A stretch of 64,000 bases of DNA from a virus, in the IMG/VR virus record IMGVR_UViG_3300035104_000006, positions 17,576 through 81,575 of that record; one strand, written 5' to 3'. The position numbers and the translations under genes are program-made. The notes below the pieces were generated by a model that was given only the letters and a program-made list of their open reading frames with translations, was not told the origin of the DNA and made no database searches. This document shows positions 6,465 through 52,668 of the stretch, piece by piece. The stretch's first letter is position 1; the number at the start of each line of letters is the position of its first letter.

Positions 6465-6466
6465 GT

Positions 6467-29570: not shown

Positions 29571-29614
29571 ACAAAAAGCCTCTACTACGAATATGTAGTA
29601 GAGGCTTTTTTGTT
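29570..29614. terminator. bidirectional terminator between convergent operons
   Basis: AAAAAGCCTCTACTAC-gaatat-GTAGTAGAGGCTTTTT. Confidence 0.9.
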
Positions 29615-30108: not shown

Positions 30109-30117
30109 AAAATCCCC

Positions 30118-30513: not shown

Positions 30514-30515
30514 AC

Positions 30516-30725: not shown

Positions 30726-31039
30726 TAGAAATTCTCCCTCACTTGGAAGTTTACTACCTCATAGACTATCTCTTTTCCTTCTAAATCTTCGGTGTATACT
30801 TCTCCTTCATAGTAACCTGCAGCACGTTCTGCGAGCAGATCTTTCAGTGGGAAGAGAATCTCGCCGTCTTGTGGGGTTACTATATCTGCGATAATTGTAA
30901 CTAACACAGAAGTAGTATTTCTAGCACGTACTTTCATCTTTACCTCTAACCCTGAAAGATTAACAGGGTTAGAGGTATCTTTACGTACTATAGTCATATG
31001 TAATTGAGATTTATCATCATTTGACACTAGATAATGCAT
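30725..31039 (-). CDS. BppU-N-like tail/baseplate accessory protein
   Basis: PVNLSG..V.MKVR...G.I.F...AGYYEGEV pattern. Confidence 0.55.
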   Translation of the reverse strand: MHYLVSNDDKSQLHMTIVRKDTSNPVNLSGLEVKMKVRARNTTSVLVTIIADIVTPQDGEILFPLKDLLAERAAGYYEGEVYTEDLEGKEIVYEVVNFQVRENF

Positions 31040-31053
31040 TATTTTCTCCTAAA

Positions 31054-34000
31054 TTACCCACAATGGTAGGTACATGCTATTATTTTTACTACATTGTTGT
31101 TTATCTCTTCTTGTGTCCAGACTATATCTTCTCGCGCTTTGGCTACAGTATAATTGTGAAGAAGATCGTCATCTTGTCTCATTCCTTTGCCTGGAGTTGA
31201 GCTAGAGCAAATATAATCACCTATTTCTATATTTCCACCTTCTGCGACTACATTTACACAGCCTTCACCTAAAGCATTGAAAGAAATATAATTATAATTT
31301 TCATAAATATTAAAAAACTCTTCTTGTAGTGTGCTCCAGTTCTCGTCGTTTATATTATTATAGATATACCTATATAAAGTTATAGGCATTGTTGAATACG
31401 AAAATAAATACATAAAATCAGAGAAAGAATCTTGTCTTTCAAAAGAAATTTTATCGGTAGCTTCTATTCCTACTACCTTTGAAAATACTCCAACAACCTG
31501 CTTCATTTTGGTAGCCTGAGATTCTCGTAGAGACCCTAAAGTATTAGACACTCCCACTTTAAAGAAGTTTTTAATATCGCATACTATATCCCCTTGAGAT
31601 ATATCAATACTTTTAGGCATTAAAGCATCGTGCGACCCTGTAAATGGAGAATAGTCAGATCCAGAACCTGCAGCGTAAAAATTGTGATCTGAGCCGTACG
31701 CTATAAAACCGTATCTAGCTGTGGACATAACTCCCACATATCCGTCCCCATAAGTGCTTGAGTTAGTTGTTGCTCTAATAGCAATAGCTTGACTTACATG
31801 AGAGTTATAATTTTGAACCTCTACAGTTGGGTATGCATCGTCATTACTAGACTCTACCCATAAAGACCTACCTCTAGTATACTCACTATAACCTATTCTA
31901 GCTGCAGTCCTCTCGCTCGGAGAAGACCCATCATTATTAGTGTCTTCTAAACCTAAACTGGCTATTGGAACTACATCATTGTTTAAATTACTGTCTCCAG
32001 AATACCCATAAACTCTTATCTTCTGAGTTCTTTCATCAATTACTATATTAGGAGCTAAAGGAATGACAGCAGTTAACTTACTAAAAGGGCCAAATGTGTC
32101 AACGGAAGATATACCATATAAGTAGTTAGAGGAGCTACTTTTACCAGTCCATTCAAAAAATTTAGGAACATCATCGTCTATAACATAGCCATTACCACTA
32201 GTTGGGAAATCTTCTACACTATTTAGGTACATGATAGTATCCCCAGCCTCTACAGGAGTAGTTATATATCCACCTTTATTTAAATGAGTAGAAGCACTTA
32301 CTTGAATACCTCGTAGTACCCCCGTATTTATATTATCTGCCGTGATCAATGATGCGTTAATAAACCCGCCAGATATTAGGGTATTTCCATTCGCTTGTGC
32401 GTTATCTATACTTGCCCCTAAATTCAATTGTGTTTGTGTAACATCAGCATTATCGTGAGGTTTAGTTCCAGTCTCATCTCCTATTGCAGCCCATTGAGTT
32501 GGGTTTTCTACACTAATCCACGAACTACCTGACCACCAATAAGGCTTGTTCTCGTCATTAGTATCATACCATAGATCACCTTTACCTTCTGGAGTAGGAG
32601 CAGTATCTTGATAAAAACTAACTATTTTACCATCAGCAGTAGACTGAGCAGTTGAAGCAGCACTTAATGCACTTTGTATATCATCATCTTGAACTTCTAA
32701 CCAACTAGACCCTGACCATCTGAATAACTTATTTCCGTTATCTGTATCTATCCACAAATCACCAACACCCTCAGCAGTAGGGGTATTAGCCTGATAAAAT
32801 GTAGTAACTTTACCATCAGCAGTTGCTTGAGCATTATTAGCGGCTGTTTGAGCATTTGTTATATCTTGTAATACTGTAGCAGCAGGTGTCCCATCTATAT
32901 TATAAACATCATTGGCGGTGTTTTCGCTAGTAACATCAGCTCCATTAGCTACATTTATATCACTTCGTACCTCAGAAGCATTGCCTACATATATATTTCC
33001 ACGAACTATTGCATTATTAAGTTCTGCCGTACCATCGGCATTAATACTCCACCCCTTTGTACCGGCATTATATGTATAGGAACGAATTAATGAACTTGTA
33101 TGAGAACTGTCTCCAACTGTAAGATAGCTTCCCACAGTAAGATTATTAGTTAAAGTATCATCAGCTACTAAAGAGTCAGCAGCTACAGTACCTTTTACTA
33201 ATAAAGATCCATCAATAGTTTCTACTACTATAGATGACCAGTCAGTACTATAAAAAGAGTCAGTGGATACCTTTGTGTCACCTTGATAAATTCTTTGCGC
33301 TATAATATCAGGATTAGTACTGCTCTGTACAGTTACTCTATCCCCAGGCACTATATTATTATCAGGATTTTCACTAGAATCTATAACTAATTGAGCTACG
33401 CTATTTGATGTAGTATCTGTTATACTATCACTGGCCCAATCTGAAGCAACACTATCAGAAGCTTCTATAGAATAGCTAACTCCCCCTCTTCTCCCTATAT
33501 AATTCTTTGCAAAGTAAAAGTAATAAGTAGCTGCATTAGTAGTACCTTCTAAGTATACTTTAATAGGCAAATACCCACTATCTGCACTAACTGATTCAAT
33601 ATACGCAGTATTATCATCTTTTAAAGCCCCAGTACAACCTACACCAGTCAATACTTCGATACTAAACTCATCGAAACCCGGAGGGTAAGGTACGGCTAAT
33701 AACTCTGCCCCTTCTTTTATAACAGAAACATCTGTAAACGCTTTACCGTTTATTCCTAATTCATTAGCTACAGGTGTTCCTTTCCAATCACAAAATATTT
33801 GCTGTGTAGATTTGGAGAGAACTATAGTATACCCTGTAGGTCCATTTCTTACTGCCTTAACAACAACTGGAGAAGACTCTAATATAGATACTTCTGTAGT
33901 ACCGTCTAATTTATACGCAGTTGATACAGCAGTAATAGGAAAAGTATCGTAATTACCTAATGTTTCTGTAACCTCAAATACTCCTGAGGATACATTAGTC

Positions 34001-35787
34001 ATGTCGTAACTATTTATGTTCCCTAATGCATCTGTTATTTCTATACTAACCCCTTCATGGGCCGGCATGTCTGTTACAGTAGCGGTGAACCTGATACTAG
34101 GAATTGAAGGGCTACTTTCATTTATATAAGGTACTATTAAGTCAGAACTCTCTAGTAATATACTTTTATTAGGAGTTAAACTATCTTCTGTAGGTATTTC
34201 CCAATAATCTTCTTCAGTATCGACATCAGGAGCTATAATACTCGGGTTTGTAGAGTCAAAATCTAAAGGATCATTAATAAATTTACTAGCTTCTATATTT
34301 ATAGATAAATCTTTATTATATGTGACAGAGCTAATCAGAACTTTTTTAGTGTTACCATACAATTCATCATTTAACTCTAAAAAATCCCCTACTTTTACAT
34401 TTAGGAGATCGTTTCTTGGAACTAGTTGAAATGACACACTACCTTCTATATCAAACTCTTTATTATAATAAATTATTCCTAGTTTTTGAGCTACTACTGA
34501 GTCTCTTAAATAAGTCAAATCTAGTACATTTGAGGATGGATTACTAACATCTGATGCACTACTCTGTGTACTTTTACTCCATACTAAAGCTTCTGAAGGT
34601 CTATCTTGAGGTATATCTTCATTTAAGCTAAACTTAATGTACCCTCCATCAGATGCTTTTATCCATGAAGGTCTAGAGCTAAAAGAGTTTTTAACTATAT
34701 CTGTCCTTGTTAAGGATTTTACTACATCAGTAGAGTATGGGTATAACTCAACCTTATCTGTAATCCTAAGTGTAGCATTGCATTGTGTTAATAATGAAGA
34801 TAATCTAGCTCTTCTGTCTATTTGATTATAAAAACCACCGTTCCAGTAAATTCCTTGACTTTCAAAAGTAGTCTTACTTGTAGCAAAAGTTCCTGCTGTA
34901 TCAATTAAGCTTTCAGGTACCCCACAATCTTTTAAGAATTTAGTGATTACATCCACAGGAGAAGCTCCAGGTGAAGTAAAAGGAAGTTCTGTAGAAGTTA
35001 CTCTAGTAGGCATATCTAAAAAGAAGTCACCGTCTTTCCAGAGACCATTAGCATCTACTTCATTATCCCCATCACTATCTGCAATAATAGCCTGAAATAC
35101 TTTATACCCGTCAGATATAGATTGAGGGAAGTTATAAGTGCTGTCCCAGGTTGACTGATTAGGCCATTCCTTAGGAGAAGCCACTTTATCAATCGTATAG
35201 GTAAATGAACTATCTCCTAGAGCATAGTATCTTTTTCCATCACTAAACACTGATCTAAGAGGTATAAATGCTTTACCAAAAATTTGAGGTATAACATAAT
35301 CATCTGACCTCTCAGTCTCTACTTTCCACACTTCTCTTGGGTGTAAGGTATTTGGGTGATCTCCTTCAAGATAGGTAGTAAGTATATTTTCCAAGTAAAA
35401 AGTTCCAGTTTTATAATACTGCTCTACCTTTTTAACTTTAAACTTCCATGTAGTATGTAAAGACCTATCAATCAACAGTTTTATAGTGACAGGCACAAAA
35501 GAGAACTTACTCTCTATAAGACCGTTATGTTCATCTAATAGATCCTCTTCAAGAGATAAGTTGTAAGAATCCTCACCCTTTACTATAGCATCAGTAAATA
35601 AAACTGTAAAATTAATATCGGCTGGATGTATAATAGCGTTGGAGTCTGAGGCAGCCTCATTTATTCCACTAAAAGAGGAGGGGTCTATAATACCTTCATA
35701 GTATGTACCTTGAAACTCTGTGTCTGCGGTACTCCAATTATATAATGTATCTTGAGTTTCTACCTCAAACAACCATTCAACTAACAT
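31054..35787 (-). CDS. large tail tip/central fibre protein (1577 aa) with duplicated ADGK..FYQ..PT.EG.GDLW.DT repeats and C-terminal peptidase-G2-like chaperone domain
   Basis: Size, beta-rich composition, internal repeat, FTGSH...NALGEG...GD.I.SS..PG.GM.Q.DD tail. Confidence 0.75.
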   Translation of the reverse strand: MLVEWLFEVETQDTLYNWSTADTEFQGTYYEGIIDPSSFSGINEAASDSNAIIHPADINFTVLFTDAIVKGEDSYNLSLEEDLLDEHNGLIESKFSFVPVTIKLLIDRSLHTTWKFKVKKVEQYYKTGTFYLENILTTYLEGDHPNTLHPREVWKVETERSDDYVIPQIFGKAFIPLRSVFSDGKRYYALGDSSFTYTIDKVASPKEWPNQSTWDSTYNFPQSISDGYKVFQAIIADSDGDNEVDANGLWKDGDFFLDMPTRVTSTELPFTSPGASPVDVITKFLKDCGVPESLIDTAGTFATSKTTFESQGIYWNGGFYNQIDRRARLSSLLTQCNATLRITDKVELYPYSTDVVKSLTRTDIVKNSFSSRPSWIKASDGGYIKFSLNEDIPQDRPSEALVWSKSTQSSASDVSNPSSNVLDLTYLRDSVVAQKLGIIYYNKEFDIEGSVSFQLVPRNDLLNVKVGDFLELNDELYGNTKKVLISSVTYNKDLSINIEASKFINDPLDFDSTNPSIIAPDVDTEEDYWEIPTEDSLTPNKSILLESSDLIVPYINESSPSIPSIRFTATVTDMPAHEGVSIEITDALGNINSYDMTNVSSGVFEVTETLGNYDTFPITAVSTAYKLDGTTEVSILESSPVVVKAVRNGPTGYTIVLSKSTQQIFCDWKGTPVANELGINGKAFTDVSVIKEGAELLAVPYPPGFDEFSIEVLTGVGCTGALKDDNTAYIESVSADSGYLPIKVYLEGTTNAATYYFYFAKNYIGRRGGVSYSIEASDSVASDWASDSITDTTSNSVAQLVIDSSENPDNNIVPGDRVTVQSSTNPDIIAQRIYQGDTKVSTDSFYSTDWSSIVVETIDGSLLVKGTVAADSLVADDTLTNNLTVGSYLTVGDSSHTSSLIRSYTYNAGTKGWSINADGTAELNNAIVRGNIYVGNASEVRSDINVANGADVTSENTANDVYNIDGTPAATVLQDITNAQTAANNAQATADGKVTTFYQANTPTAEGVGDLWIDTDNGNKLFRWSGSSWLEVQDDDIQSALSAASTAQSTADGKIVSFYQDTAPTPEGKGDLWYDTNDENKPYWWSGSSWISVENPTQWAAIGDETGTKPHDNADVTQTQLNLGASIDNAQANGNTLISGGFINASLITADNINTGVLRGIQVSASTHLNKGGYITTPVEAGDTIMYLNSVEDFPTSGNGYVIDDDVPKFFEWTGKSSSSNYLYGISSVDTFGPFSKLTAVIPLAPNIVIDERTQKIRVYGYSGDSNLNNDVVPIASLGLEDTNNDGSSPSERTAARIGYSEYTRGRSLWVESSNDDAYPTVEVQNYNSHVSQAIAIRATTNSSTYGDGYVGVMSTARYGFIAYGSDHNFYAAGSGSDYSPFTGSHDALMPKSIDISQGDIVCDIKNFFKVGVSNTLGSLRESQATKMKQVVGVFSKVVGIEATDKISFERQDSFSDFMYLFSYSTMPITLYRYIYNNINDENWSTLQEEFFNIYENYNYISFNALGEGCVNVVAEGGNIEIGDYICSSSTPGKGMRQDDDLLHNYTVAKAREDIVWTQEEINNNVVKIIACTYHCG

Positions 35788-35862
35788 TTATTATCTCCTT
35801 TAAATTAACCTTCTATTTTTCTAATACGCTGTTAGCAATACGTAGTACAAGTAGTTAATAAA

Positions 35863-35901
35863 TTACCAACTCGTAATCGCCACACGTTCCCACGTATCAG
35901 C
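35863..35901 (-). pseudogene. relict C-terminus of a displaced tail-fibre gene (ADTWERVAITSW*)
   Basis: Out-of-frame 12-codon remnant matching the common fibre end motif TW.RVA...W*. Confidence 0.5.
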
Positions 35902-36400
35902 CGTTAAACACAGGCAACTCCGCAATCAACTCATCCACTGTATGTATTTCCCGTGTTCCTGCTTTCACGTCAGCCAGAATACCTCTTGCAGTTGTCCACA
36001 CATCTTTATTCCATTCCCACACAGAAGAGCAGAAAGCGTAATGCTCATAAGTCTCATCGTCTGCATAGCTCTTGCAGTTGTGTACGTTGTCGAAAGCCAC
36101 TTCGTTGGTCTCGTTATAATTGTCTACCTCTGCTTGTATGTATGCCGATACTGCATCTACACACTTATTACGATATTCACGTTGCTGTTGTGCCTGTAGC
36201 TGCTCGTCTAACTGCCATGAACCGTTTATGAAAACATGCGCTTCAGAAGGCTGCTGTTCAATCAACGTGCCACCATTAGCAATAAACTCTTCGTAGTCCG
36301 CCCACTCGTTGCAGTTTGGGTTTATCGCGTGGCTAATCTCTCCATCTTCGACCAGTATAACTTTGTCTGGCTTGTTTGTTGCTATGTATGTTTTTGTCAT
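35897..36400 (-). CDS. tail fibre assembly-type protein
   Basis: IN PNC.EWADY..F...GG; follows receptor-binding gene. Confidence 0.6.
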   Translation of the reverse strand: MTKTYIATNKPDKVILVEDGEISHAINPNCNEWADYEEFIANGGTLIEQQPSEAHVFINGSWQLDEQLQAQQQREYRNKCVDAVSAYIQAEVDNYNETNEVAFDNVHNCKSYADDETYEHYAFCSSVWEWNKDVWTTARGILADVKAGTREIHTVDELIAELPVFNG

Positions 36401-36452
36401 ATATTTTACTCCTATTTATTGCTTACCAGGCGCTCAACAGATTGCCAGGAAA

Positions 36453-37601
36453 TCAGATTACAAAAGCGGGGCGAAACCCGACATTGCTGTACCGAAGCGA
36501 CCGATCGTAAAGCAAGTTGAGAAAGAACACCCCGGCATACGTGCTGTGGTTCCAGTAGCCGCCGCGGATCGGGAGACGCTCCCCCACGTTGCGCACAAAT
36601 ATCTTGTCGCCTCCCAGCCCGGTACCTACGGGATACATGCCCAGCGCGATCATGAGGGCAGGCACTGAAACGCCTGTTTCGGCGGACAAGCTCTCAAAGT
36701 ACGTAATTGAGTATTCAGATCCCGTGGATTGTGAAGTCAGGGTGGTATTTAAGATCGGCGATCCTGCGCCATTTGTCCCGGTAGCGTCATATTTCAGGGT
36801 GTCGGTTGTTCCTGGCGCAACCAGAGACCCATCCTGCAAAATCGCTTTCCATTCGCTGCTGGTCGCGCTCTGGTCTTTCGTGTGGTCGGCAGCATTGTTG
36901 TCGGCAAGAATCTGAATCTCGCCGTCGTTTATCCGCATACCCCCTTGCCACTCCCACACATTACCGTGCATGTCGTGCACGCCGTGCATAGTGTGGTCGT
37001 GCGCCCATGTGGCAGGGCCGGTGCCGGTGGCGGTATGCGCTGTGCCGCTATCGCCGAGAATCGCAGCGGGATTAGTAAGCCTCCCCGTTTCGTGCTTATA
37101 GTCGATATCGCGCCCGTAGTTGTTGTTGCCATGCGGCATGGTGCCGTTCTTCCACGCCCATAATGCCAGCGCAGACCATTCAGTATTCGTGGACATATGC
37201 CAGCCATTACCTTTTGCGGCGCACGCAGCCAAAGCCTCATCGAAGTTTATAGCATTGGCAGGATCGGCGTTGGGTACAGATACGTAGTTACTCCCCTTCA
37301 CACTTGCAAGATATTGCCCGTAATAGATAGCGTCTTTTTCTACCCCGTTTACTACGAACGCGGGGTGAACGCCCGTGCCAAGCGAAGCATCAATATCCTC
37401 AAGACGGAATTTCGGTATACGCACCATACAATTAGCGTCACCGAAATCATCGTAAATTATGGGGTTTCTACGCATATCTTCCATCGAATCTATGTATTTT
37501 TTATTGTAGTAATTCTTCTTATCCTCCGTAGCCATCGTACCCAGCATACCATTAGTCGGTACATGCTCAGGCTTGCGGCCTACCTTAACTACACTGCTCA
37601 T
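36453..37601 (-). CDS. FGE-sulfatase/C-type-lectin-fold receptor-binding protein with DGR-type variable region
   Basis: WHMSTNTEWSAL, DMHGNVWEW, RGGYWN...AGVF.LN....RS....NVGFRPAF. Confidence 0.85.
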   Translation of the reverse strand: MSSVVKVGRKPEHVPTNGMLGTMATEDKKNYYNKKYIDSMEDMRRNPIIYDDFGDANCMVRIPKFRLEDIDASLGTGVHPAFVVNGVEKDAIYYGQYLASVKGSNYVSVPNADPANAINFDEALAACAAKGNGWHMSTNTEWSALALWAWKNGTMPHGNNNYGRDIDYKHETGRLTNPAAILGDSGTAHTATGTGPATWAHDHTMHGVHDMHGNVWEWQGGMRINDGEIQILADNNAADHTKDQSATSSEWKAILQDGSLVAPGTTDTLKYDATGTNGAGSPILNTTLTSQSTGSEYSITYFESLSAETGVSVPALMIALGMYPVGTGLGGDKIFVRNVGERLPIRGGYWNHSTYAGVFFLNLLYDRSLRYSNVGFRPAFVI

Positions 37602-38021
37602 TTACGCACCTCCAATCACGCCAAAGCGTTGCGGGGGAGTTACTTGTATTTGGTTGCCTTCTCCGTCATCTATCATGTAGGGAGCGGTTGAGTAGACGGA
37701 TTCGTACTTGTCGTTAAGGGCGGTGTCGTTGAAGATAGTGGAGTAAAGAGTATCTGCTGTACCCTTGCCTGTGAACGGTGCTTCCGCTAATACCTCTACA
37801 CCTTCCATGCCACGCCATTGAGTTGCTTCTTCGTCAGTTAATCTAAGATAAGCCAACATGGAGTTACCATTGATTGCTGCTGGTGTGCGGGCAATTCCAG
37901 TAACTACGGGAGGCTGGGCAATGGTACCGTCCTCGTTCTTCTTTAGTAGGTCAGGGTAGTTTGTAGCTAAGTAATCTACAAAAGTTGGGAAGTCCTGTAT
38001 GTATATAATTGCGTCAATCAT
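37602..38021 (-). CDS. hypothetical tail-associated protein
   Basis: Tightly packed in operon. Confidence 0.6.
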   Translation of the reverse strand: MIDAIIYIQDFPTFVDYLATNYPDLLKKNEDGTIAQPPVVTGIARTPAAINGNSMLAYLRLTDEEATQWRGMEGVEVLAEAPFTGKGTADTLYSTIFNDTALNDKYESVYSTAPYMIDDGEGNQIQVTPPQRFGVIGGA

Positions 38022-40796
38022 TTATTCCTCCGTGGTTAGGGCGATTAGGTTGTTATCAGTAAGTGCTTTTGGGTAGTAGGATAGGTGTCGGATGTGGCCG
38101 TTGAGTTGGTTACTTCCCATCCTATTACCAATTTCTAAAGCTGTTAATCCTTGAGGTATTCCAGTAGGGATATCGGTCTGCAAATCTCCAACATTTCCCA
38201 TGACACTAAATAAATCATTTGTAACCTTAAAGGCAATATTCCTCACCTGTCCTGCTGTTCCACTAGTTGATGTTATATACACATCGCAAGCATTATTATA
38301 TTCAGAGTTTAGGTATCTTTTATACCCTCCACGAAGTTGTAACAAGATTGCGCTAGTTAAAACATTATAGTCACTCAGAACTACAAGATTTTGATAATTA
38401 TCAGAATCAAAACTTGATGCCTCAACAACAACCGTCCCCTCATTCTGATTATAAAAATCACTGAAGTCAGTGCCACCAATATAAGCAACATCCGCTGCAC
38501 GAGTCGTAGCCGTTGAGGTGCTGATGTCTGCTGCACGGGTTACTGGTGCTGAGGTTGTTGGGATGTAGGATGATAAATAACCTTCTGTTAAGTTTGCTCC
38601 CCAGATATACAGAGACTCCCCATTAGCAGCGGTTATAGACCCCACAGCAACTACGGCGGTAAAATCTAATAAATCATAGGTTATGGTAGCTTCTGTAGTA
38701 AATGTAACCCAACATCTATACCACCCATTACCGACATAAAACATGCCAGCATCGTCTTGTGTATCCGTATCGAATGTGAAATTTCCTGTAAGGCAGTCAA
38801 ATGTACCGCCATCATTTGAGGCTGAATCTTGAAAGGTTCTTATTCTTAAAAACTCAATAGATCCCTTTTTAGCAAATATACTGGCAGTGTATCTAGTATT
38901 TACGCTTTTAACTGTATTAGCTCTTAAGTAAACACCTGATGGGGCAACTATGTTTAATAAGTCAGCAGTTTTAGTCCCATCAGGTGCAGTTAGTACATCT
39001 GCATCTATTGTGACTCCACCTTTACCCCAAGCCGCATTATCAAACTCTTCCGAGTAAGTAAGTAGGTTAGTAGCAGCCGTATGCTCCAACAACAACGTAG
39101 CAGGAGCAGTTAAATCAGCGAGGTTATACGTATAACGTGCCTCATCAACTGCTGCTGTTTGCATTACACCATCAGCGTCAAAGTAAGTTGCTGTAGAAGC
39201 ACGAGAGGTGAAGGATATGTCCGAAGGTATATAGGGTGAAGGGGAGGAGCCTTCTTCTAGTTGGGCTCCCCAGATGTAGATGCCGGAGGTGCCGTCGCCT
39301 GTGTAAGTTAGATTGTCACTTGCAGAGTTTATTAATTGAACTCTTGCTCTATGATCTGTACATGCTGCTGTAGTTGTATAAGTAACCCAACATCTACGCC
39401 AACCATCAAGGAGTATGTCCATCCCTGCGTTTGTTATAAGTACATTAGTTGTTGCTAGTGGCCCAACATTTAAATCAAATTTGATAATAGATGTTGAACT
39501 AATCTCCCCAATATGTACAGGTCGGATTACCACATAATCACCAGAGTTACCCTTCTTAACGTATAACGACTTGGTAAATGTTCCCTCAGTTTGTGTCAGT
39601 ATCTGCTCCATATAATGTTCTGCATTGTCAGTATTATCAACCAGCTTATCTGCTGTCAACGTCCCATCTGGAGCAACTGCTGTGTTTGGTTCTATAGTTG
39701 AATTAGTCCTCCCCCAAACCCCATTCCCAAAGTCCTCACTATAAGTAAGTAAATTAGTCCTGCTCTCCCAGATACTAAGCCCTTTACACTCGCCTGTCAC
39801 AGGGTCGTGGTCGATAGTGGGTTCGTCTACATCTGCGTAACAGAGCCTACATTTGTGGTCGTAGTAAGACTTATTAGATGCACGACTAAAGGTGATACGT
39901 GGGTCTATCTCTTTGCTGTAGAAGTCGAGTAAAAGAGATGGGCGGATGCTAGGGTATTCGAGCATCCCGTACATAGCCAACCAATCACTAGATGATGTTG
40001 TGGGTTCACTAGTTGTTACGTCGGTTAGGTTATTTAATAAAGTCCACATTATACCGTTATGATAGACGGATGCTGGGATTGAGAGAGAGCCTGTTAGGTT
40101 ACTCCAGATACCTGCGTAGTTAGCAGAAGAAGCTGCTGCCTGTTCTGATTGGCTTGCGGAAGTAGCAGATGATGCAGCTTCGTCTGCTGAAGTTGAGGCG
40201 GAAGAAGCTGAGGAAGCAGCATTTTGGCTATAGCCTAGGGCGTCAGCTTCGTAGGAGGCTGCGTTGGATGCAGATGCAGATGCGGCGGACGCACTTGCCG
40301 CCGCGTTGTCTGCATAAGTAGAGGACGCAGCAGCACTAGTTGCAGATTTATTCGCAAAGTGGAGGGAGGAATAGTCATCTACTCCGTCACCTTCAGGGAC
40401 TAGTTGGTCTTCAGGATAGTTAGCCCAGTTTTCAGCCTCCGTCGCTGAAGCAGCAGCAGGTGTTTGGTAATCATAGGCTTCTATCTTAACCCAAATTGAG
40501 CCATCGAATACGAGCCAGTTGCCGACTTCCCAATCGCTAGTTCCATCTAAGGTTGTTGTACCGGCGGTGGAAACTAGGTAATAATGTCCTGTTGCGCCGG
40601 AAGAAGAGGATAGAGTTGGGGTGTTAGTGGAGGCGTCCCAGGAGCCGGCGAAAGTTAATTGGCCGATTTGATTCTCAGTATTAACCTTACTGACAACTAA
40701 ATCACGAAGATCTTGTGCAGTTATACCTCCGATATTATTATCGGCAAATAATGACAATAATTGAGCATCTGTTCTTTGTGTATTTGCCATTATCAA
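38022..40796 (-). CDS. tail fibre/spike protein (924 aa) with two TNLLTYSE carbohydrate-binding-like repeats
   Basis: WDASTNTPTL motif, Ala/Ser heptad stretch, duplicated TNLLTYSE.F...W...APDGT.TAD domains. Confidence 0.8.
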   Translation of the reverse strand: MIMANTQRTDAQLLSLFADNNIGGITAQDLRDLVVSKVNTENQIGQLTFAGSWDASTNTPTLSSSSGATGHYYLVSTAGTTTLDGTSDWEVGNWLVFDGSIWVKIEAYDYQTPAAASATEAENWANYPEDQLVPEGDGVDDYSSLHFANKSATSAAASSTYADNAAASASAASASASNAASYEADALGYSQNAASSASSASTSADEAASSATSASQSEQAAASSANYAGIWSNLTGSLSIPASVYHNGIMWTLLNNLTDVTTSEPTTSSSDWLAMYGMLEYPSIRPSLLLDFYSKEIDPRITFSRASNKSYYDHKCRLCYADVDEPTIDHDPVTGECKGLSIWESRTNLLTYSEDFGNGVWGRTNSTIEPNTAVAPDGTLTADKLVDNTDNAEHYMEQILTQTEGTFTKSLYVKKGNSGDYVVIRPVHIGEISSTSIIKFDLNVGPLATTNVLITNAGMDILLDGWRRCWVTYTTTAACTDHRARVQLINSASDNLTYTGDGTSGIYIWGAQLEEGSSPSPYIPSDISFTSRASTATYFDADGVMQTAAVDEARYTYNLADLTAPATLLLEHTAATNLLTYSEEFDNAAWGKGGVTIDADVLTAPDGTKTADLLNIVAPSGVYLRANTVKSVNTRYTASIFAKKGSIEFLRIRTFQDSASNDGGTFDCLTGNFTFDTDTQDDAGMFYVGNGWYRCWVTFTTEATITYDLLDFTAVVAVGSITAANGESLYIWGANLTEGYLSSYIPTTSAPVTRAADISTSTATTRAADVAYIGGTDFSDFYNQNEGTVVVEASSFDSDNYQNLVVLSDYNVLTSAILLQLRGGYKRYLNSEYNNACDVYITSTSGTAGQVRNIAFKVTNDLFSVMGNVGDLQTDIPTGIPQGLTALEIGNRMGSNQLNGHIRHLSYYPKALTDNNLIALTTEE

Positions 40797-41077
40797 TTAT
40801 TCCTTTCAAGTATTCGGTCTATTGTTTTTTCCACATTTGCAACTCGTGATTTACAAACTTCTTGATCGGCTGTTATTTTTATTAATGTTGTGTTGAGATT
40901 TATTCCTATTGTTATGGCTGTGGTGGTTAAGATGATTATCGCACCACCTAGTATTCTCATAAACCAAAGATTTGCCTTATGTCTAGTTTCAAGAGTGTTT
41001 AGCCTGATTAGAACATCAGTGTGCTGAACTCCGCAAAACTGATCGTAACTGTTTTCACTATTATTCATAGACGACAA
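40793..41077 (-). CDS. single-TM holin/XhlA-like membrane protein
   Basis: C...H...RL..LE, one TM segment, RVANVEK tail. Confidence 0.5.
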   Translation of the reverse strand: MSSMNNSENSYDQFCGVQHTDVLIRLNTLETRHKANLWFMRILGGAIIILTTTAITIGINLNTTLIKITADQEVCKSRVANVEKTIDRILERNN

Positions 41078-41676
41078 CCTCCGTCTGATTGATCATCTTC
41101 GAGATCAGACGCGTCAGTTATTATTTTCGGCTGTTTTCTTGTTTCAGATATAGATTCTGAATGGATTTCTTTTGTATTAGAGCCGGAGCTTAACCAATCA
41201 CCGAAGTTTAAGTTTATATTCGCTCCTGCATTTGGCTGGCTTTTTTGTTCTACGATTCCGGCATGGCTAAGGACGAAATGGCTTTCCTTCAAATCACCGC
41301 CTTCTACTGCATTTACTACATTGGTAGCCGCAGTGAGCACGGACTCATTAAGCAAGTTCTTCGCCTGTTCTGCCATTGATAGTTGTGAATCTTCAATTCT
41401 CTGCATGACTCTTGGGTCGCGAGATACGATTGTTATAAGCTGGCTGGACAGTCCGAGTTGTCTGGCTATGTCAATTTTCTTATATCCCACAGCTAGCATA
41501 TCGGCTATAGTCTTATTTCTTTTCGACAACGGCTGATTAGGATCAGAAATATATGTATGACCGAATTTAGTCTTAGCTATTCCACTTTCAGATACTTCAT
41601 ACTCTTCTCCGTAGAAATCTTTGCACAAGGCTTTTCTTGCCTCGCTTGTCGCTTCTGCTGATTCTGATCTTGCCAT
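41065..41676 (-). CDS. terminase small subunit-like HTH protein
   Basis: GYKKIDIARQLGLS HTH, AVEGGDLKESHFVL, INLNF tail; first gene of leftward operon. Confidence 0.5.
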   Translation of the reverse strand: MARSESAEATSEARKALCKDFYGEEYEVSESGIAKTKFGHTYISDPNQPLSKRNKTIADMLAVGYKKIDIARQLGLSSQLITIVSRDPRVMQRIEDSQLSMAEQAKNLLNESVLTAATNVVNAVEGGDLKESHFVLSHAGIVEQKSQPNAGANINLNFGDWLSSGSNTKEIHSESISETRKQPKIITDASDLEDDQSDGGCRL

Positions 41677-41808
41677 GACGGTAACTCCTTATGTACTTTG
41701 TTTTTTATAATTATCATGATTATCCTTGATTATGTTGGTTTTCGATTATGAAGATAGGCTAGCATGACTAAGGAGTATTTGCAAGATAGTTTAGATGGGT
41801 GGATTTAG

Positions 41809-42026
41809 TTGACGGAATAAGTAAATAAATAAATAAGTAAGCGTGGCATAAAGGAGGTGTGGAAAATTTATAAAAATTGAAAAAGAGAGATTTACTAATT
41901 TGATTATATGTATTTTTAAATATATAAATATTCATATATAATAATTGATTATTTAAACAGTAAATTTCTTTTCCTTTTTCTTTCTCAACCTATCTTACCC
42001 CTACGCTTATTTACTTATTTATTAAC
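41809..42026. repeat. imperfect palindrome 1 with (AAAT)n/(ATTT)n arms
   Basis: AATAAGTAAATAAATAAATAAGTAAGCGTGG ... CTACGCTTATTTACTTATTTATT; purine-rich left arm, pyrimidine-rich right arm. Confidence 0.8.
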
Positions 42027-42230
42027 TTAATATGCCAATCTCTCTGAAATAATTAAATAAGTAAATAAATAAGTGTTTGGGCTATAGATTAACGGAAAAT
42101 TTTCAGAAATATTATGTAATCCTGACTAAAAAGGTAGGGTATTTAAAAATTGCTTGGGGAATTACATGGTGTCAGAACCCCACCCGCTAATCTCCGCTTA
42201 ACTTTTTTGGGACCCAATGCCGATGTCGAA

Positions 42231-42250
42231 CATGTTTCACGTGAAACATG
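42231..42250. promoter_or_regulatory. perfect parS site (TGTTTCACGTGAAACA) in a 20-bp palindrome
   Basis: Exact match to the chromosomal ParB/Spo0J consensus. Confidence 0.85.
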
Positions 42251-42380
42251 CCGGAAACGATAGCATTAAAGGAAAATAATATTTAACCTGGTAGACCTGG
42301 TACGGATATTGCTGAGCCCGAATTAATACACACCTGAATGAACGAGGAAGAAATAATTGAACTAATAGTACAATTTTTAG

Positions 42381-42409
42381 TTGACAGGGATGAAGATAGT
42401 TGATAGATT
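42381..42409 (+). promoter_or_regulatory. sigma70 promoter
   Basis: TTGACA-17-TAGATT. Confidence 0.7.
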
Positions 42410-42460
42410 GTATTTAACAACGATGAGGAACACTAACTAACAACCGAAGGGAGAACAATC

Positions 42461-42973
42461 ATGGAAACTAAAACAATTACAGCGGTACGGCATGAAAAGG
42501 GAACAAAGGTTGTTAAGTACTCCACAAGTATTACTGGAGTACCGACAATAGGTTGTCTGGTCGATTGGATAATGGAGAAGGGGGTGCACGAACAAGTATT
42601 GTCTGCCTTGATACGCCAGGCTGAGCAAGTGGCGTTGGGTAGGTGCGCCAGCGCGGATAGTGCAGGACAGGAATTGCCAGAAGAACAGGATTTTTATCAA
42701 TTAATTACTGGCACGGGAACTGGGCGATTCTCATACAAAAAAGCAGCGGAACAGCTGCAAGCTAAAGTCGATGAGCTGCAAATAGAATATAACAAGCTTA
42801 CGCAGCTAGCAATGGCAGCACTAGCCAGTGGAGACACTGAGACTGCTACAATACATGGGAATACTGCGAACAATATTATGCAGAATATCCAGGCAAAGCA
42901 GGAAAAAATTGGAGAACATCTGGCCGCTCATGCTGAGCAGCAAGAAAAGCGGAAGGCAGCTAAACGGGACTAA
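42461..42973 (+). CDS. isolated hypothetical protein with C-terminal coiled coil
   Basis: Own promoter, GGGAG RBS and terminator. Confidence 0.75.
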   Translation: METKTITAVRHEKGTKVVKYSTSITGVPTIGCLVDWIMEKGVHEQVLSALIRQAEQVALGRCASADSAGQELPEEQDFYQLITGTGTGRFSYKKAAEQLQAKVDELQIEYNKLTQLAMAALASGDTETATIHGNTANNIMQNIQAKQEKIGEHLAAHAEQQEKRKAAKRD

Positions 42974-42983
42974 TTCGCTTTCT

Positions 42984-43025
42984 AAGGGGCGTACATGTCG
43001 GATTCGATATGTACGTCCTTTTTTA
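42984..43025 (+). terminator. intrinsic terminator
   Basis: GGGCGTACATGTCG-gatt-CGATATGTACGTCC followed by T run. Confidence 0.8.
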
Positions 43026-43585
43026 TCTTGAAAGGCATTCTAGCATGAAAAATGAAAGCGATAGAGGGCATACCGTACATATGAACGGGGAAACCACACG
43101 GTGATAGCAAATGGATACCAGAAACTGATTAAAAAGAGGGAGACAAGATATGTGGTATCATATTAAAACTGCAATATATGAATTTTTAGTTCTGTACGGT
43201 CTGGCTCAGGTCTGGATGATCGGCATGATCTATATCCTGGAATGATCATACCTGTCATATCCGTAACCATCCACCCGTTATCGGCTGAAATATCGCCTGT
43301 AGCGGGTTTTCTTTTGTCCAGCCATGCCCTAGCCTTATCCTGACATTTCATCCCCTCAAATCGGCTCTCATTGGCTCTTGAACAAATAATTGTTCTTTAA
43401 ACTACAGAATAGGTCTTGAATTAAAGATCGTTCTCGTAAATTAAGCGTTATTTTGTAACAAATAGATTTGCCTAAATTTTAGGCAAGGTTTGGAACCGGT
43501 ATTGTTGAAATGCAGCCTCCAGCGTGTCCAGAATGCCGTGTATTGCATTTTTTCATGCCCGGCAATACCAGGGACGGTCTGTATC

Positions 43586-43951
43586 GGCGTTTTTCAATCA
43601 TAGAGCCGTTTAGGGGCAATTAAGCGTTAAATAAATAAATAAATAAATAAATGCCCGGGTAAGGTGGATTTAAAAAGAAAGAAAAATTTATATTAAAACT
43701 GAAATAATAAAAAAACTGAAAAAAATAATAAAAAAAAGAAAGAAAAAATTAGAATTAAAATTGGATTAAAAAAAAATTAATAAAAAGAATAAAGAATTAA
43801 AATATATAAATATATATATATATAAAAATCAATATAAATAAATTCCTTAATCTAATTTTTTCTCTTTTTCTTTCTTTTTTCCTGCTTCTTACCCTACCGC
43901 TTATTTATTTATTTATTTATTTATTTATTGACCGCCAGGATTGAAAATGCC
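43586..43951. repeat. imperfect palindrome 2 (~365 bp) with (AAAT)n arms and (TA)n centre
   Basis: GGCGTTTTTCAATC...(AAAT)n..GGGTAAG...TATATATATATA...CTTACCC..(ATTT)n...GATTGAAAATGCC. Confidence 0.85.
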
Positions 43952-44046
43952 ATAAAATCAGAATGATTCCGGTATCTTAGAGAATCGAACGAACATTCTA
44001 AACCTAAATCTGAACAAACATTAGACGTTTATAACTACGATTATCG

Positions 44047-44075
44047 TTGACAGTATGAGGGTGTTTTGTTAGTTT
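44047..44075 (+). promoter_or_regulatory. sigma70 promoter of the right-hand early region
   Basis: TTGACA-17-TAGTTT. Confidence 0.65.
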
Positions 44076-44132
44076 TACAGCATGACGAAGACAAGAGAAG
44101 GTATCTTTTAACAAGTAATGGAGGGATGAACG

Positions 44133-44360
44133 ATGAAGAACAGATTCAGAATTAGTGGAAAACTAAAAGTAATAGAGCGGATGAAGAATTCGAGAAACGG
44201 CAACCCACGGTATAAATTTACCGTAGGCGACTCATTGCCTATAGTAACTAGAATTGATTCTAGTTATGGATATGAAATAACTAATCATGATGGTAAGCCT
44301 GTTATTGCAACCGTGGGCTATCATTATGGCAGACTTACACTTAATAATTTGGAGGGATAA
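44133..44360 (+). CDS. conserved phage early protein
   Basis: NSRNGNPRY...T..DS.YGY motif; GGAGG RBS. Confidence 0.65.
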   Translation: MKNRFRISGKLKVIERMKNSRNGNPRYKFTVGDSLPIVTRIDSSYGYEITNHDGKPVIATVGYHYGRLTLNNLEG

Positions 44361-44363
44361 ACG

Positions 44364-44608
44364 ATGAAAACGATTAGTTATTATATAAAGCTGCATGAAC
44401 TAGGGGGAAATTAAGAAGTACTTTCCCAGAGATTAAATTCACCTACAATAGTGATGCGAATATATGGCTAACTGAACGGAAGGAGGATATAGAGATCTTA
44501 CTCGATATGTTTGAGTATCGTGATGAGTGGAAAAAACTACTAGATGTTCCTGATCTTATTATATTCTCCCACGATTCGGATTATTGGTTCGGATTTACTT
44601 TAGATTAA
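44364..44608 (+). pseudogene. ORF broken by two +1 homopolymer indels (G5 at ~44403, T3 at ~44422)
   Basis: GGAGG RBS; removing one G and one T gives an open ~80 aa frame MKTISYY...YWFGFTLD. Confidence 0.5.
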
Positions 44609-44699
44609 ATAAAATAGCAGTATTAATGCCGAAAATATTATGTTAAACAAAAAAAAATACATTATTCCGGATTATCTAATTTAATAAGGAGACTCAGTC

Positions 44700-45005
44700 A
44701 TGAAGCAAACAGTCACTAAAAGTATGTTCGTCGATGCATTCCAGGATATCCGCCCGGATAATTTCAGCCATAGCGGATTATCTGCTATGTATGACTATCT
44801 AAATGATTATGAAAGAGAGACAGGTCAAGAACTTGAGTTGGATGTTGTAGCAATTTGTTGTGACTTTTCAGAACATAACAATATTCTGGAGCTAGCAAAA
44901 GAGTATGGAGAAGAGTTTGACAACACAGCGGATGCACTAGAATGGTTACGTGAAAACACAATAGTAATAGAACATCCTAGTGGCATAATTATTCAGGACT
45001 TCTAA
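44700..45005 (+). CDS. conserved acidic phage early protein
   Basis: MKQTV...F.DAF...NFS..GL..YDYL..E...ELELDVVAICCDFSE family. Confidence 0.7.
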   Translation: MKQTVTKSMFVDAFQDIRPDNFSHSGLSAMYDYLNDYERETGQELELDVVAICCDFSEHNNILELAKEYGEEFDNTADALEWLRENTIVIEHPSGIIIQDF

Positions 45006-45061
45006 ACAGATTATCAGAGCACTACAGAATAATAGCTCTGTAGTGTTCTAATAGACTGTTT
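45004..45061 (+). other. long intergenic hairpin (family copy 1)
   Basis: ~25-bp stem; TTATCAGAGCA...GTGTTCTAATA. Confidence 0.7.
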
Positions 45062-45091
45062 AATCCATCATCACCAACAAAAAAGGAGTAA

Positions 45092-45340
45092 ATGATGAGT
45101 AAAAGAATGTACAACCTACCTAAAACAAAAGTGTACGAACTATCTATCACTAAACGGGATATTTTTGGCTATCGACAAAGCAACCAGACTATCCTTGTAC
45201 CTAAACACATATTACCAGACTCCGACCGGTTGGCCCTTGAAGACAAATATGGGTATCGGTATGCCCGGGATATATCCTTAGAGTATGATCTGAGCACTCG
45301 CAGAGCAATCGTACCATACTACATTTTTAAAATTTACTAA
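45092..45340 (+). CDS. hypothetical protein
   Basis: AAGGAG RBS. Confidence 0.55.
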   Translation: MMSKRMYNLPKTKVYELSITKRDIFGYRQSNQTILVPKHILPDSDRLALEDKYGYRYARDISLEYDLSTRRAIVPYYIFKIY

Positions 45341-45351
45341 GGGGAATTACT

Positions 45352-45543
45352 ATGTACGATTCAAGAATGAGAATTCAAGAAAAGGATTATCAGGCAATTA
45401 AACGCGGAATACTGGAACTGTTGAGGATGAATGGAGTAACCTTTAACGAAGTGAGTAATCACATATCTTATGTAGAGGATAAGGACTTGGCTACAACGAA
45501 TTTCCTTATAGATATTAAATCAGGAGGGATCAGTCATGCGTAA
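45352..45543 (+). CDS. hypothetical protein
   Basis: ORF track, RBS. Confidence 0.5.
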   Translation: MYDSRMRIQEKDYQAIKRGILELLRMNGVTFNEVSNHISYVEDKDLATTNFLIDIKSGGISHA

Positions 45544-45877
45544 AATTGAACAAGAAATGATTGTAGCTGTAGAAGATAACTCTAACTGGAGTAGAAGCAA
45601 TACTTGTGTTCTTTCTGAGGATAGAGAGTATCCAGGATTTATCCTCTTGTATGGCAATAAAATTATGGAGTTTGAAATTGATCCGTTAACTGGGAAATAC
45701 ACCATAATGTTCAATTTCTGCGGATGGCAGACCAACACTACTAAATCAAGAATTAACGCCATTCTCTCACATTTCGGTCTTGGCTATGTTTTCCAGAAAA
45801 ACTATAACCTGTATTATGTCAATTCATCAGGAAAAGAGTTACAGATAAGCAATAGTGAATGGATTGTAGCAGAGTAA
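45536..45877 (+). CDS. conserved phage early protein (GWQTNTTKSRIN family)
   Basis: MRKIE..M...NW...NT.V...LYGN.I...GWQTNTTKSR.NA. Confidence 0.7.
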   Translation: MRKIEQEMIVAVEDNSNWSRSNTCVLSEDREYPGFILLYGNKIMEFEIDPLTGKYTIMFNFCGWQTNTTKSRINAILSHFGLGYVFQKNYNLYYVNSSGKELQISNSEWIVAE

Positions 45878-45926
45878 TGTTTTATCGGAGCATATCTATA
45901 ATATAGATGTGTTCTAATAAGACATT
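45876..45926 (+). other. long intergenic hairpin (family copy 2)
   Basis: TTATCGGAGCA...GTGTTCTAATA with a different but paired upper stem. Confidence 0.7.
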
Positions 45927-45959
45927 ATCGTTCACCCATTCCAGAGAAGGGAGAGTATC

Positions 45960-46259
45960 ATGAAACCAATTGTTTATGATTTAATTGTAACCCGTCATCC
46001 TGCATTGCTTGACTTGATAAAAGAACTCGGTCTAGCGGATGATAGCACGCTAGTTATTAGCCATGCCGATGTAGAGAATGTATCCGGTCGCCACGTGTTA
46101 GGAGTACTCCCTCACCACCTATCCTGCCACACAATCACTTATTCTGAAATAGTTCTATCCATACCAGAACATCTACGCGGAAAAGAACTTGACATTCATC
46201 AGCTCCGCCGTGCATATCGTGGCATAAATACCTACGTGGTTAACAAATTAAATAACTAA
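45960..46259 (+). CDS. Csx16 (VVA1548)-like protein
   Basis: VTRHPAL...SHAD...V.GVLP.HL...L.IP..LRGKEL...L matches my recall of the Csx16 pattern. Confidence 0.65.
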   Translation: MKPIVYDLIVTRHPALLDLIKELGLADDSTLVISHADVENVSGRHVLGVLPHHLSCHTITYSEIVLSIPEHLRGKELDIHQLRRAYRGINTYVVNKLNN

Positions 46260-46274
46260 AAAGGAGGTAGTATT

Positions 46275-46526
46275 ATGAGTAATCTGCATAGTAAGCAGAA
46301 ACTGGCAAATATTATTGCCCGTCGTGCCGGATATTCCAGGGCGACAAAAATAGTTATCGGTGATGATAATAAAGTAGTTCGTCACGTTCCATTCGGCTAT
46401 CGTAAATTCACTACAAATGAGTACGTACCGAATTCCTATCGAAACAATTTCGGCTGGAAGAATACCTATTATCAATCTGCAATTACCGAAGTTATGGTAA
46501 TGGAAGGGAGTTTTAGTGATGAATAA
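46275..46526 (+). CDS. basic hypothetical protein
   Basis: AAGGAGG RBS. Confidence 0.6.
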   Translation: MSNLHSKQKLANIIARRAGYSRATKIVIGDDNKVVRHVPFGYRKFTTNEYVPNSYRNNFGWKNTYYQSAITEVMVMEGSFSDE

Positions 46527-46830
46527 TGAATCTGGAATTATTTTATTGATTGATTCACGGAATGGAATTCATATACCTAAAATATTCAAAAAACTATGCT
46601 TGTCCGGTGGCTGGAGAGTTCCAGGAATTACTAGCAGAGACCTATCTATTCTCGACAATCTAGAGCATGAAGAATACTGGGATGTCTGGGAGTATGTACT
46701 CGATAATGCTGAATATATCAATAGTTCCGGTGATAAGTTCACTCTATATCAAGACGGTGATTTATGGGCGTTATGTCTGAAGCTAATGAACGAGTATGAA
46801 AAACACGATTTTTTCGGGGAGGATGTGTAA
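46516..46830 (+). CDS. conserved phage early protein (LYQDGDLW family)
   Basis: DSRNGIHIP..F...W..V..NA...LYQDGDLWA. Confidence 0.65.
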   Translation: MMNNESGIILLIDSRNGIHIPKIFKKLCLSGGWRVPGITSRDLSILDNLEHEEYWDVWEYVLDNAEYINSSGDKFTLYQDGDLWALCLKLMNEYEKHDFFGEDV

Positions 46831-46832
46831 TT

Positions 46833-47138
46833 ATGGATCAGTATGATTTACAAAGAATTCGAGAAAGAGTTAACAAACTGAATAAAAACCCATCAACAAT
46901 GCTTCAGGCGATAAAGATAACTAGAAAATTGCATATAATCTCAGAAGAAGAGGGTGTACCCTACAGTTTGCTTATTGAAGGTGAAGTATATCCAGGATGT
47001 CCATTGTGTAGAATGAGTAATGATTGCTCGTGGAATATTTTTGAAGGAAGAACTTGCTCTTTAATTGAATACAAAGACAATAAAAGAAGTATAGAACGAC
47101 TAACAAGATGGATTGATAAAATAGAAAAAGGAGAATAA
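46833..47138 (+). CDS. hypothetical protein (CPLC...C..C)
   Basis: GGAGG RBS. Confidence 0.55.
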   Translation: MDQYDLQRIRERVNKLNKNPSTMLQAIKITRKLHIISEEEGVPYSLLIEGEVYPGCPLCRMSNDCSWNIFEGRTCSLIEYKDNKRSIERLTRWIDKIEKGE

Positions 47139-47274
47139 GTTATGAACGATATTTACAATGAAGTGTTAGATAACTCTGTTTCTATTCTTGACGATTTACT
47201 AGCTACTGATGAGGATAATATTGGGGAGCGAATTTATTACTATCCAAGAGAAAACAATATGGAGGATATAGATA

Positions 47275-47577
47275 ATGAAACATTGTATTTTGAACAGTAA
47301 GAATATTAGTAAGATAAAAATACTAACTTATGACGGTCTTACAAAACGTGAGAAGAGCATTGTATGGAAAGAATCTTTTCGCGAGCAGCTCCAGTATTTT
47401 CGATACGCCGGAAAACTGTTTGTCTACTCTTTCATGCCTAGTACTGCCGGAATTGACGAGCTAGACAATTGGCAATATATGAAATATCTTTCCTACACAT
47501 CCGGAATCGTTGTCAATCCACATCCGAAACATGACGGATATCTAGCCATAACGAGGTTTTCACTATGCAAGAAATAA
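47275..47577 (+). CDS. hypothetical protein
   Basis: GGAGG RBS. Confidence 0.55.
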   Translation: MKHCILNSKNISKIKILTYDGLTKREKSIVWKESFREQLQYFRYAGKLFVYSFMPSTAGIDELDNWQYMKYLSYTSGIVVNPHPKHDGYLAITRFSLCKK

Positions 47578-47611
47578 CGATAATTCCGCTAATAATCGCA
47601 TTCATCGAGGT

Positions 47612-48196
47612 TTGTATATTATGAAAATTCAAACAGTTATAGTATCAGCATGTACCGGCGTACTTATCGGATCAGTGTATATAAACAATGTGCAGTGCAA
47701 TAAACGAATTGACGAGTTAAACAATCACTGGAAAACTGCACATGAACAATGTCTTTCCAATTCCGTGAGAATTTATGATAAGTTTCAGGATAGAAACGAA
47801 CTTCTCTCATCTATTCTAGGAGTAGACACAACAGATTATCTTGCCTTTTCCTTGCCTGTAAGAATTACAGCATACTCGGCAAACGAGCAAGAATGTGATT
47901 CTAGTCCAGAAAGAACGGCAAGCAATAGTCTGTCACGAGTAGGCACGGTCGCCCTCAGTCCAGATATTCGGCAAGACCTGTCAATAAGTTATGGAGATAA
48001 AATAATTCTCTATCAAGACAATTCCTGCCTCGGAGTATTTTCTGTGGAGGATTCAACTAGTACATATAAACATAAAAATACAAACTCACCGAAGCCGATA
48101 ACTAGAACGGTGGATATAATGATGGGAAATCGTACCGCTGCAAAAGAATTCGGCGTACAGTCTGGCAAACTCGTACTTATCAAAGAAAGAATATAG
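47612..48196 (+). CDS. 3D/RlpA-like domain cell-wall protein with N-terminal TM
   Basis: ITAYS...TAS...VALSPD...YGD.I...VEDS...VDIMM. Confidence 0.65.
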   Translation: MYIMKIQTVIVSACTGVLIGSVYINNVQCNKRIDELNNHWKTAHEQCLSNSVRIYDKFQDRNELLSSILGVDTTDYLAFSLPVRITAYSANEQECDSSPERTASNSLSRVGTVALSPDIRQDLSISYGDKIILYQDNSCLGVFSVEDSTSTYKHKNTNSPKPITRTVDIMMGNRTAAKEFGVQSGKLVLIKERI

Positions 48197-52665: not shown

Positions 52666-52668
52666 GTG

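Follow-up and report, generated by a model that had tools for sequence, protein, structure and literature searches.

We analyzed a 64,000-nucleotide stretch of viral DNA (the window), which occupies positions 17576-81575 of one 114,484-bp contig from the Joint Genome Institute (JGI; IMG/VR record IMGVR_UViG_3300035104_000006), with a focus on the place where two phage replication arms meet. In contig coordinates, the sequence falls into four blocks: arm 1 (plus strand, 0-47 kb), block A (minus strand, 47.2-59.25 kb), arm 2 (plus strand, 60-91.5 kb), and block B (minus strand, 92.2-114.3 kb). The left part belongs to a phage that we call X and the right part to a phage that we call Y; the short bridge between them stems from a minor allele, Z, of the gene encoding the receptor-binding protein (RBP). 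Positions below are those of the window unless contig positions are named. The features, with the basis of each assignment, are as follows.

1-29404, plus strand: arm 1, the early and replication region of phage X (Pfam, tRNAs, PolA identity, and collinearity with the related genome G001)
29613-35787, minus strand: fiber block of phage X, with genes for proteins of 55/57, 112, 131, 69, and 104 amino acids (aa) and a 1577-aa fiber (Logan contiguity, tetranucleotides)
35897-36400, minus strand: 167-aa gene downstream of the RBP gene, right edge of the exchangeable RBP cassette (cassette comparison)
36453-37460, minus strand: receptor-binding body with an FGE-sulfatase-like domain, equal to the C-terminal 345 aa of a 735-aa fiber of phage X (Logan contig L097, depth 57x)
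37461-37672, minus strand: bridge, specific to minor allele Z (comparison with L097 and Y; protein P0001; contig L167)
37602-38021, minus strand: 139-aa gene, conserved adaptor at the joint, in the window a Z/Y hybrid (protein look-ups)
37673-37799, no strand: 127-bp segment, an exact copy of the final 127 bp of the contig and the switch node from the X/Z path into the Y cycle (self-comparison)
38022-41676, minus strand: fiber operon of phage Y, with 203-aa, 94-aa, and 924-aa (phrog_5939) genes (on source-run contigs of depth 336-377x)
41677-44132, no strand: AT-rich control region of Y between the divergent fiber operon and early genes (spanned by contig L101 at 99.4%)
42461-64000, plus strand: arm 2, the early and replication region of Y (Pfam)

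The presence of two unrelated replication modules had been proposed from the DNA letters alone (the sequence-only reading), and this proposal proved sound. PolA, PhoH, dUTPase, ribonucleotide reductase (RNR), and ligase each occur twice on the contig, as confirmed by Pfam, and the paralogs across the arms share only 25 to 43% identity. Arm 1 encodes, according to Pfam, an NAD-ligase, a DnaB-like helicase, a primase, a split PolA, PIN-PhoH, a helicase, and Mre11/Rad50, in addition to PDDEXK_15, FEN, dUTPase, class II RNR, and two tRNAs. A promoter family (TTGACA-N17-TATAAT with a conserved leader) is present in 13 copies, all within contig 111-38911. These calls agree with the T5-like replisome, NAD ligase, PhoH, and single repeated promoter family previously assigned to the left arm. 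In the window, arm 2 encodes Metallophos, N4/N6 and Dam methylases, PIN-PhoH, PD-(D/E)XK, AAA_24, DUF669, and a ligase of the ATP type with an OB domain, again as described earlier (a second PhoH, an ATP ligase, PD-(D/E)XK/AAA_24/DUF669, and different promoters); past the window, it continues with its own PolA, a DUF3987 primase/helicase, dNMP kinase, ThyX, dUTPase, and RNR. The promoter family of the left arm has no copy in the right part of the contig, and the promoter families of the two arms differ. Tetranucleotide profiles, to which the sequence-only reading had pointed, also separate the arms, with a correlation of only 0.41 between arm 1 and arm 2 compared to ∼0.8 within an arm. Megablast searches of both arms and the junction against GenBank phages detected no near relative, the single match spanning 121 bp at 80% identity.

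The join and the closed cycle

GC content is 0.36 in the 1577-aa gene and increases to 0.45 and 0.54 between 35.9 and 37.5 kb, in agreement with the GC-rich receptor-binding module noted previously. The join had been placed at this step, near 35.9 kb, and the jump in GC content and the finding that 35.9 kb is a cassette boundary in relatives would both fit such a placement. However, three Logan contigs from three runs (L097, L098, and L099) cross 35.9 kb at 99.6 to 99.99% identity and connect the fiber block to RNR on one side and to the RBP on the other. L098 and L099 run unbroken across the step, connecting the 167-aa gene with the 1577-aa gene and RNR, and the contig of the source run that covers it has the same depth, 57, on either side. 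Because these contigs run through it, we regard the step at 35.9 kb as a natural cassette edge within X, and an assembly join at that position is scarcely credible. The actual join lies at 37461-37799, ∼1.6 kb further right.

At this site, the contig meets its own end. In a self-comparison, the last 290 bp of the contig repeat window 37510-37799 at 97% identity, with all 8 mismatches confined to 37554-37672 and an exact match from there to the end. The JGI workflow uses metaSPAdes with k = 33, 55, 77, 99, and 127, and the sequence shared at the join is at least as long as the last and largest k: a 127-bp exact repeat within the 290-bp repeat, with the contig ending exactly there. An exact, k-sized overlap of a contig end with an internal site indicates that the graph walk had returned to a used node. 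The contig is therefore a lariat, composed of a 55,247-bp tail (X) and a closed 59,110-bp cycle (Y). When the cycle was closed in silico, the resulting 139-aa protein was identical to P0127, which is carried by a 2,856-bp contig of depth 377x. In contrast, the version of this protein in the window is on record only for the 114-kb contig, and exact look-ups of both the 382-aa and the 139-aa proteins of the window gave no match outside this contig, which, taken together with the P0127 result, agrees with a hybrid gene.

Depth also changes at the join. Here and throughout, depths are per-contig k-mer means of Logan contigs from the probable source run, not raw reads. A contig at depth 57 covers 28001-37466 and then runs into unrelated sequence; this contig is L097, which is 99.99% identical to window 27161-37466. 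To the right, contigs at depths 377, 336, and 309 cover 37510-48000, carry exactly the 8 variants of the contig end, and run leftward into the gene for a 554-aa RBP, the sequence that precedes the contig end. The coverage step that had been anticipated for an artifact is thus seen (57 on the left versus 309 to 377 on the right) at the level of contig means.

Contigs from other samples connect the two ends of Y directly. L101, a 53.9-kb JGI contig from another sample, follows window 47577 to 39027 at 99.4% identity, passes through a mosaic stretch (the C terminus of the 924-aa protein and the 139-aa gene), and then follows contig 114484 to 102623 at 99.98%. Its gene order is the start of arm 2, the 203-, 91-, 929-, and 139-aa genes, the 554-aa RBP, bAvd, HNH, the 198-aa gene, terL, portal, protease, and capsid. 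In L007/L102, the 139-aa gene is joined to the 554-aa RBP and onward to terL and the major capsid protein (MCP) at 100% identity, and the Y PolA is carried at 100% as well. In each of runs X2 and X3, one contig bridges 37510 to the side of the 554-aa RBP. Hence, the Y cycle closes without arm 1 in independent samples. Look-ups in IMG/VR, JGI, and Logan yielded no contig linking X-specific to Y-specific DNA, which is absence of evidence. Relatives with the same hybrid architecture were also sought, and none was found: X-type and Y-type genomes exist separately, with G001 containing X only and L101 and L007/L102 containing Y only. Runs X2 and X3 have almost no contigs on 28 to 36 kb, and run X8 has none beyond 42.7 kb; these gaps were not used as evidence. 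A joint in X8 from 35901 to 37510 was likewise set aside as too weak, having no more than 23 letters on one side.

The sequence between the two phages has its own identity. Four elements make up the bridge: a single-nucleotide polymorphism at 37461, a 43-bp linker of 14 codons at 37467-37509, RBP codons 1 to 31 at 37509-37601, and the 3′-terminal part of the 139-aa gene. It differs from the Y copy at 8 sites. The 382-aa open reading frame (ORF) across the bridge is in frame, with a 31-aa anchor shared with the RBP of Y followed by 14 linker residues and the X-type binding body. The linker has no match in X (L097) or Y, and a 30-mer from it had no exact match among viral or metagenome contigs. 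L167, from another run, has the exact linker and a G at 37461, together with the anchor and the binding body. A 382-aa protein, P0001, is 95% identical to the bridge ORF and the same over its first 110 residues. It is encoded on an 87,919-bp JGI contig that also encodes a 139-aa protein and the RNR and Rad50-like protein of arm 1, and on which no homolog at ≥90% identity to the 203-aa, 170-aa, PhoH, or terL proteins of Y was detected. Judging from these matches, the bridge is real DNA of a minor X-lineage allele with a short RBP (Z) and not invented sequence.

Taking the graph signature together with the depths and the independent contigs, we consider it very probable that the 114.5-kb contig arose by misassembly as a lariat-shaped chimera of two genomes. 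We infer the following path for the assembler. X and Z have the RBP body in common, and Z and Y have the 139-aa gene in common, so that the graph would link X to Y by way of a Z edge (37461-37672). The assembler would have walked from X into the rare allele Z, which has the 31-aa anchor, the 14-aa linker, and the same body, preceded by the 139-aa gene; on reaching the first 127-mer that Z and Y share within the 139-aa gene, it would have switched to Y, gone once round it, and halted on meeting that 127-mer again. Documented assembly errors include chimeras formed between co-occurring viruses that have similar regions, and in a benchmark metaSPAdes produced more large chimeras than MEGAHIT (Roux et al. 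2017, PMC5610896). Some observations weigh against this explanation. The depths are contig means and not pair-level evidence. X and Y share three more short segments at 91 to 99% identity, which points to some real exchange. Finally, the X-type RBP body beside the 139-aa gene is a natural arrangement in some X-lineage genomes, since the 87.9-kb contig with P0001 holds arm 1 genes together with a 139-aa gene.

The sequence-only reading had left a choice between a real inter-family recombinant and a misassembly across a shared tail gene. The second option holds, the 127-bp overlap, the change in depth, and the independent contigs all pointing to a chimera; the first is not supported, and the "hybrid genome" is not a real feature. 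A single molecule of ∼114 kb, in which the T5-like replication arm is joined to all replication and structural genes of another phage, would account for a length like that of T5-like genomes, for the intact reading frame of the bridge, and for the short near-identical segments common to X and Y. It is nevertheless exceedingly improbable: the contig ends in a k-sized stretch that exactly repeats an internal site within a gene, the 57x contig departs from the window at 37466 next to contigs of 309 to 377x, Y closes on itself in independent samples, and an X-lineage relative has late genes of its own. In addition, no homolog of a Y gene at ≥90% occurs on the 87.9-kb contig that carries this short RBP, and the hybrid would have to hold duplicated, unrelated replication sets.

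A related possibility is that a minor fraction of molecules arose by homologous recombination at the 139-aa gene between a Z genome and Y, as a rare natural recombinant or cointegrate that the assembler then recovered. Z and Y are identical over at least 127 bases and 97% identical across 290 bp, and the joint has the character of a recombination hot spot, being 96 to 97% identical in four otherwise different phages. However, no contig of any run or collection connects X-specific with Y-specific DNA, a cointegrate of ∼112 plus 59 kb would probably be too big for a T5-type head, and the lariat end is explicable by a graph walk without any such molecule. We therefore regard this recombinant as very unlikely and retain the assembly chimera as the best explanation of the contig.

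The shared receptor-binding cassette

RBPs are exchanged modularly through conserved N-terminal anchors. The 139-aa gene and the RBP anchor are 96 to 97% identical over 341 bp in G003, G004, G006, and Y, and the binding body is 82 to 87% identical in G005 and L084-L086, where the similarity breaks off sharply at 37466. Both G004 and G005 are complete phage genomes that carry direct terminal repeats and have neither the polymerase of X nor that of Y. At the other edge of the cassette, the C terminus of the 167-aa protein is 63% identical to the 198-aa protein of Y. On L097, the 735-aa fiber of X comprises Phage_fiber_rpt and the FGE-sulfatase-like domain; the window holds the C-terminal body only, without the N-terminal part. 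The 139-aa protein had no Pfam or PHROG match, and Atlas returned only unnamed viral clusters at 0.84; its AlphaFold model (pLDDT 68) gave no Foldseek match (best E = 0.1).

As these comparisons show, an RBP cassette and an adaptor are common to phages that are otherwise unrelated, through modular exchange. We infer from the shared RBP body, adaptor, and cassettes that X and Y may have a common host. It is also possible, and we propose it tentatively, that the 139-aa gene and the 31 RBP codons form a portable docking joint on which at least four unrelated backbones from oil-field and subsurface settings trade receptor-binding heads. The backbones concerned are the T5-like X lineage, the 59-kb Y, and two further phages with direct terminal repeats. 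If such a joint exists, X and Y would be competitors for one receptor and one host.

Short segments are also shared between X and Y away from the RBP. Contig 4722-4939, 5970-6284, and 6354-6597 match segments at window 51791-52897 at 91 to 99% identity, and contig 7862-8023 matches contig 82979-83140 at 82%. The segments at window 51.8 to 52.9 kb adjoin the attC cassette array of Y and look like small exchanged mobile cassettes.

The genomes of phages X and Y

Phage X appears to be T5-like (Demerecviridae-like), judging from its replication module and nearest polymerases: the PolA of arm 1 is closest to those of T5-like Demerecviridae (Vibrio and Aeromonas phages), at 44 to 45% amino acid identity. 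Its family A DNA polymerase at 15751-18298 is divided into ORFs of 514 and 238 aa with a 286-bp gap between them; in G001, the two parts are only ∼12 bp apart. The fiber block has a tetranucleotide profile resembling that of arm 1 (r = 0.72), and the relatives of the 1577-aa fiber in IMG/VR have a single domain in common with it. Two genomes, G001 (86 kb; CheckV completeness, 77%) and G002 (56 kb; 50%), are collinear with arm 1, mostly at 90 to 100% amino acid identity. Past RNR, the 112-aa, 131-aa, and 198-like genes of G001 are followed by a complete late region in T5 order, with tail proteins, a 1445-aa tape measure protein (TMP), protease/capsid, portal, and terL; its portal is ∼40% identical to Demerecviridae portals (My1 and GreteKellenberger). 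No Y sequence was found over the 86 kb of G001. The X part of the contig studied here is without the T5-type late genes (terL, portal, MCP, and TMP) that this relative, at 97 to 100% amino acid identity, possesses. From the CheckV completeness of G001 and G002, a genome of ∼112 kb is implied for the X lineage, so that the X part of the contig (the left 55 kb) would be about half a genome. The left contig end (contig 1-40) starts with a 19-bp perfect tandem duplication and has no other match in the contig; either X may physically end here or the assembly graph may have run into a dead end.

Phage Y is a siphophage with a lambda-type tail tip, unrelated to X, and its 59,110-bp cycle is complete. 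A tape measure, capsid, portal, and terL had been reported missing upstream of the tail tip gene; these genes are on the contig, at 99 to 110 kb in block B and outside the window, together with a protease, and they belong to Y. The head proteins are Portal_Mu, an S49 protease, and a Phage_cap_E capsid, and the tail domains are Phage_tail_L (205-aa protein) and Phage-tail_3 plus Phage_Tail_Tip (1563-aa protein). The terL of Y is only 28 to 30% identical to that of any cultured phage, the matches being siphophages of 35 to 55 kb. The 924-aa gene, formerly described as a T5-type tail tip gene, is not of that type and is part of Y: its protein matches phrog_5939 and "tail protein" entries of cyanophages and Pseudomonas, with no match to a tail tip of the T5 pb3/pb9 type. 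The 203-aa protein has a weak GerE match only. The C-terminal third of the 924-aa gene (38100-39030) is mosaic and diverged in L101/L102 (46% amino acid identity, with patches at 91 to 95% nucleotide identity), and its flanks are 99 to 100% identical there, marking a second exchangeable segment of the fiber operon.

In the control region of Y, long inverted repeats of (TAAA)n/(TTTA)n at 41800-42080 and 43620-43940 flank the 170-aa gene. A terminator with a 17-bp stem lies at 42984-43021, and Logan unitigs break at 42231-42260. A join in this AT-rich region (41.7 to 44.1 kb) was considered and ruled out, as L101 crosses it at 99.4% identity. Outside the window, a remnant of a diversity-generating retroelement (DGR) with a bAvd gene adjoins the 554-aa RBP of Y (contig 111352-114286). 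Its 74-bp template repeat (TR; contig 112109-112182) matches a variable repeat at 112660-112733; of the 12 mismatches between them, 10 fall on adenines of the TR coding strand. A 247-aa HNH ORF occupies the expected place of the reverse transcriptase.

Consequences and comparison with known systems

The public 114-kb record should be split at window 37461-37799 (contig ∼55.04 to 55.37 kb), which yields one half of a T5-like phage genome and the whole of the 59.1-kb phage. The fused size imitates a complete T5-like genome and so misleads both completeness tools and readers. The attC cassette array, Csx16, parS, and DGR remnant (arm 2 and block B) are to be assigned to the 59-kb Y and not to the T5-like phage. 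Checking whether a contig end overlaps an internal site exactly and over k bases also offers a cheap, sequence-only test for lariat chimeras in viral catalogs derived from metaSPAdes.

X resembles bacteriophage T5 and the Demerecviridae in the order of its replication genes, in its PolA (44 to 45%), and in its tRNA genes, and its lineage member G001 has terL, portal, MCP, and TMP in T5 order. X differs from T5 in that nucleotide similarity is limited to 121 bp at 80%, PolA is split, and the fiber and RBP genes are not pb1 or pb5. With Phage_tail_L, Phage-tail_3, and Phage_Tail_Tip domains, Y is like siphophages that have a lambda-type tail tip (gpL and gpJ) and a PolA replication module, but it has an extra fiber operon (203, 94, 924, 139, and RBP) upstream of terL, and its terL is only distantly related (28 to 30%). 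As in anchor-based RBP exchange, a 31-aa anchor and its upstream gene are 96 to 97% identical while the distal binding parts are swapped; unlike in that system, the joint and the binding body recur here on the T5-like backbone, on Y (59 kb), and on two further complete phages that lack both polymerases. Compared to the chimeras described by Roux et al. (2017), the contig studied here combines phages of unrelated families through only ∼290 bp of shared sequence, and the resulting lariat has the size of a complete T5-like genome.

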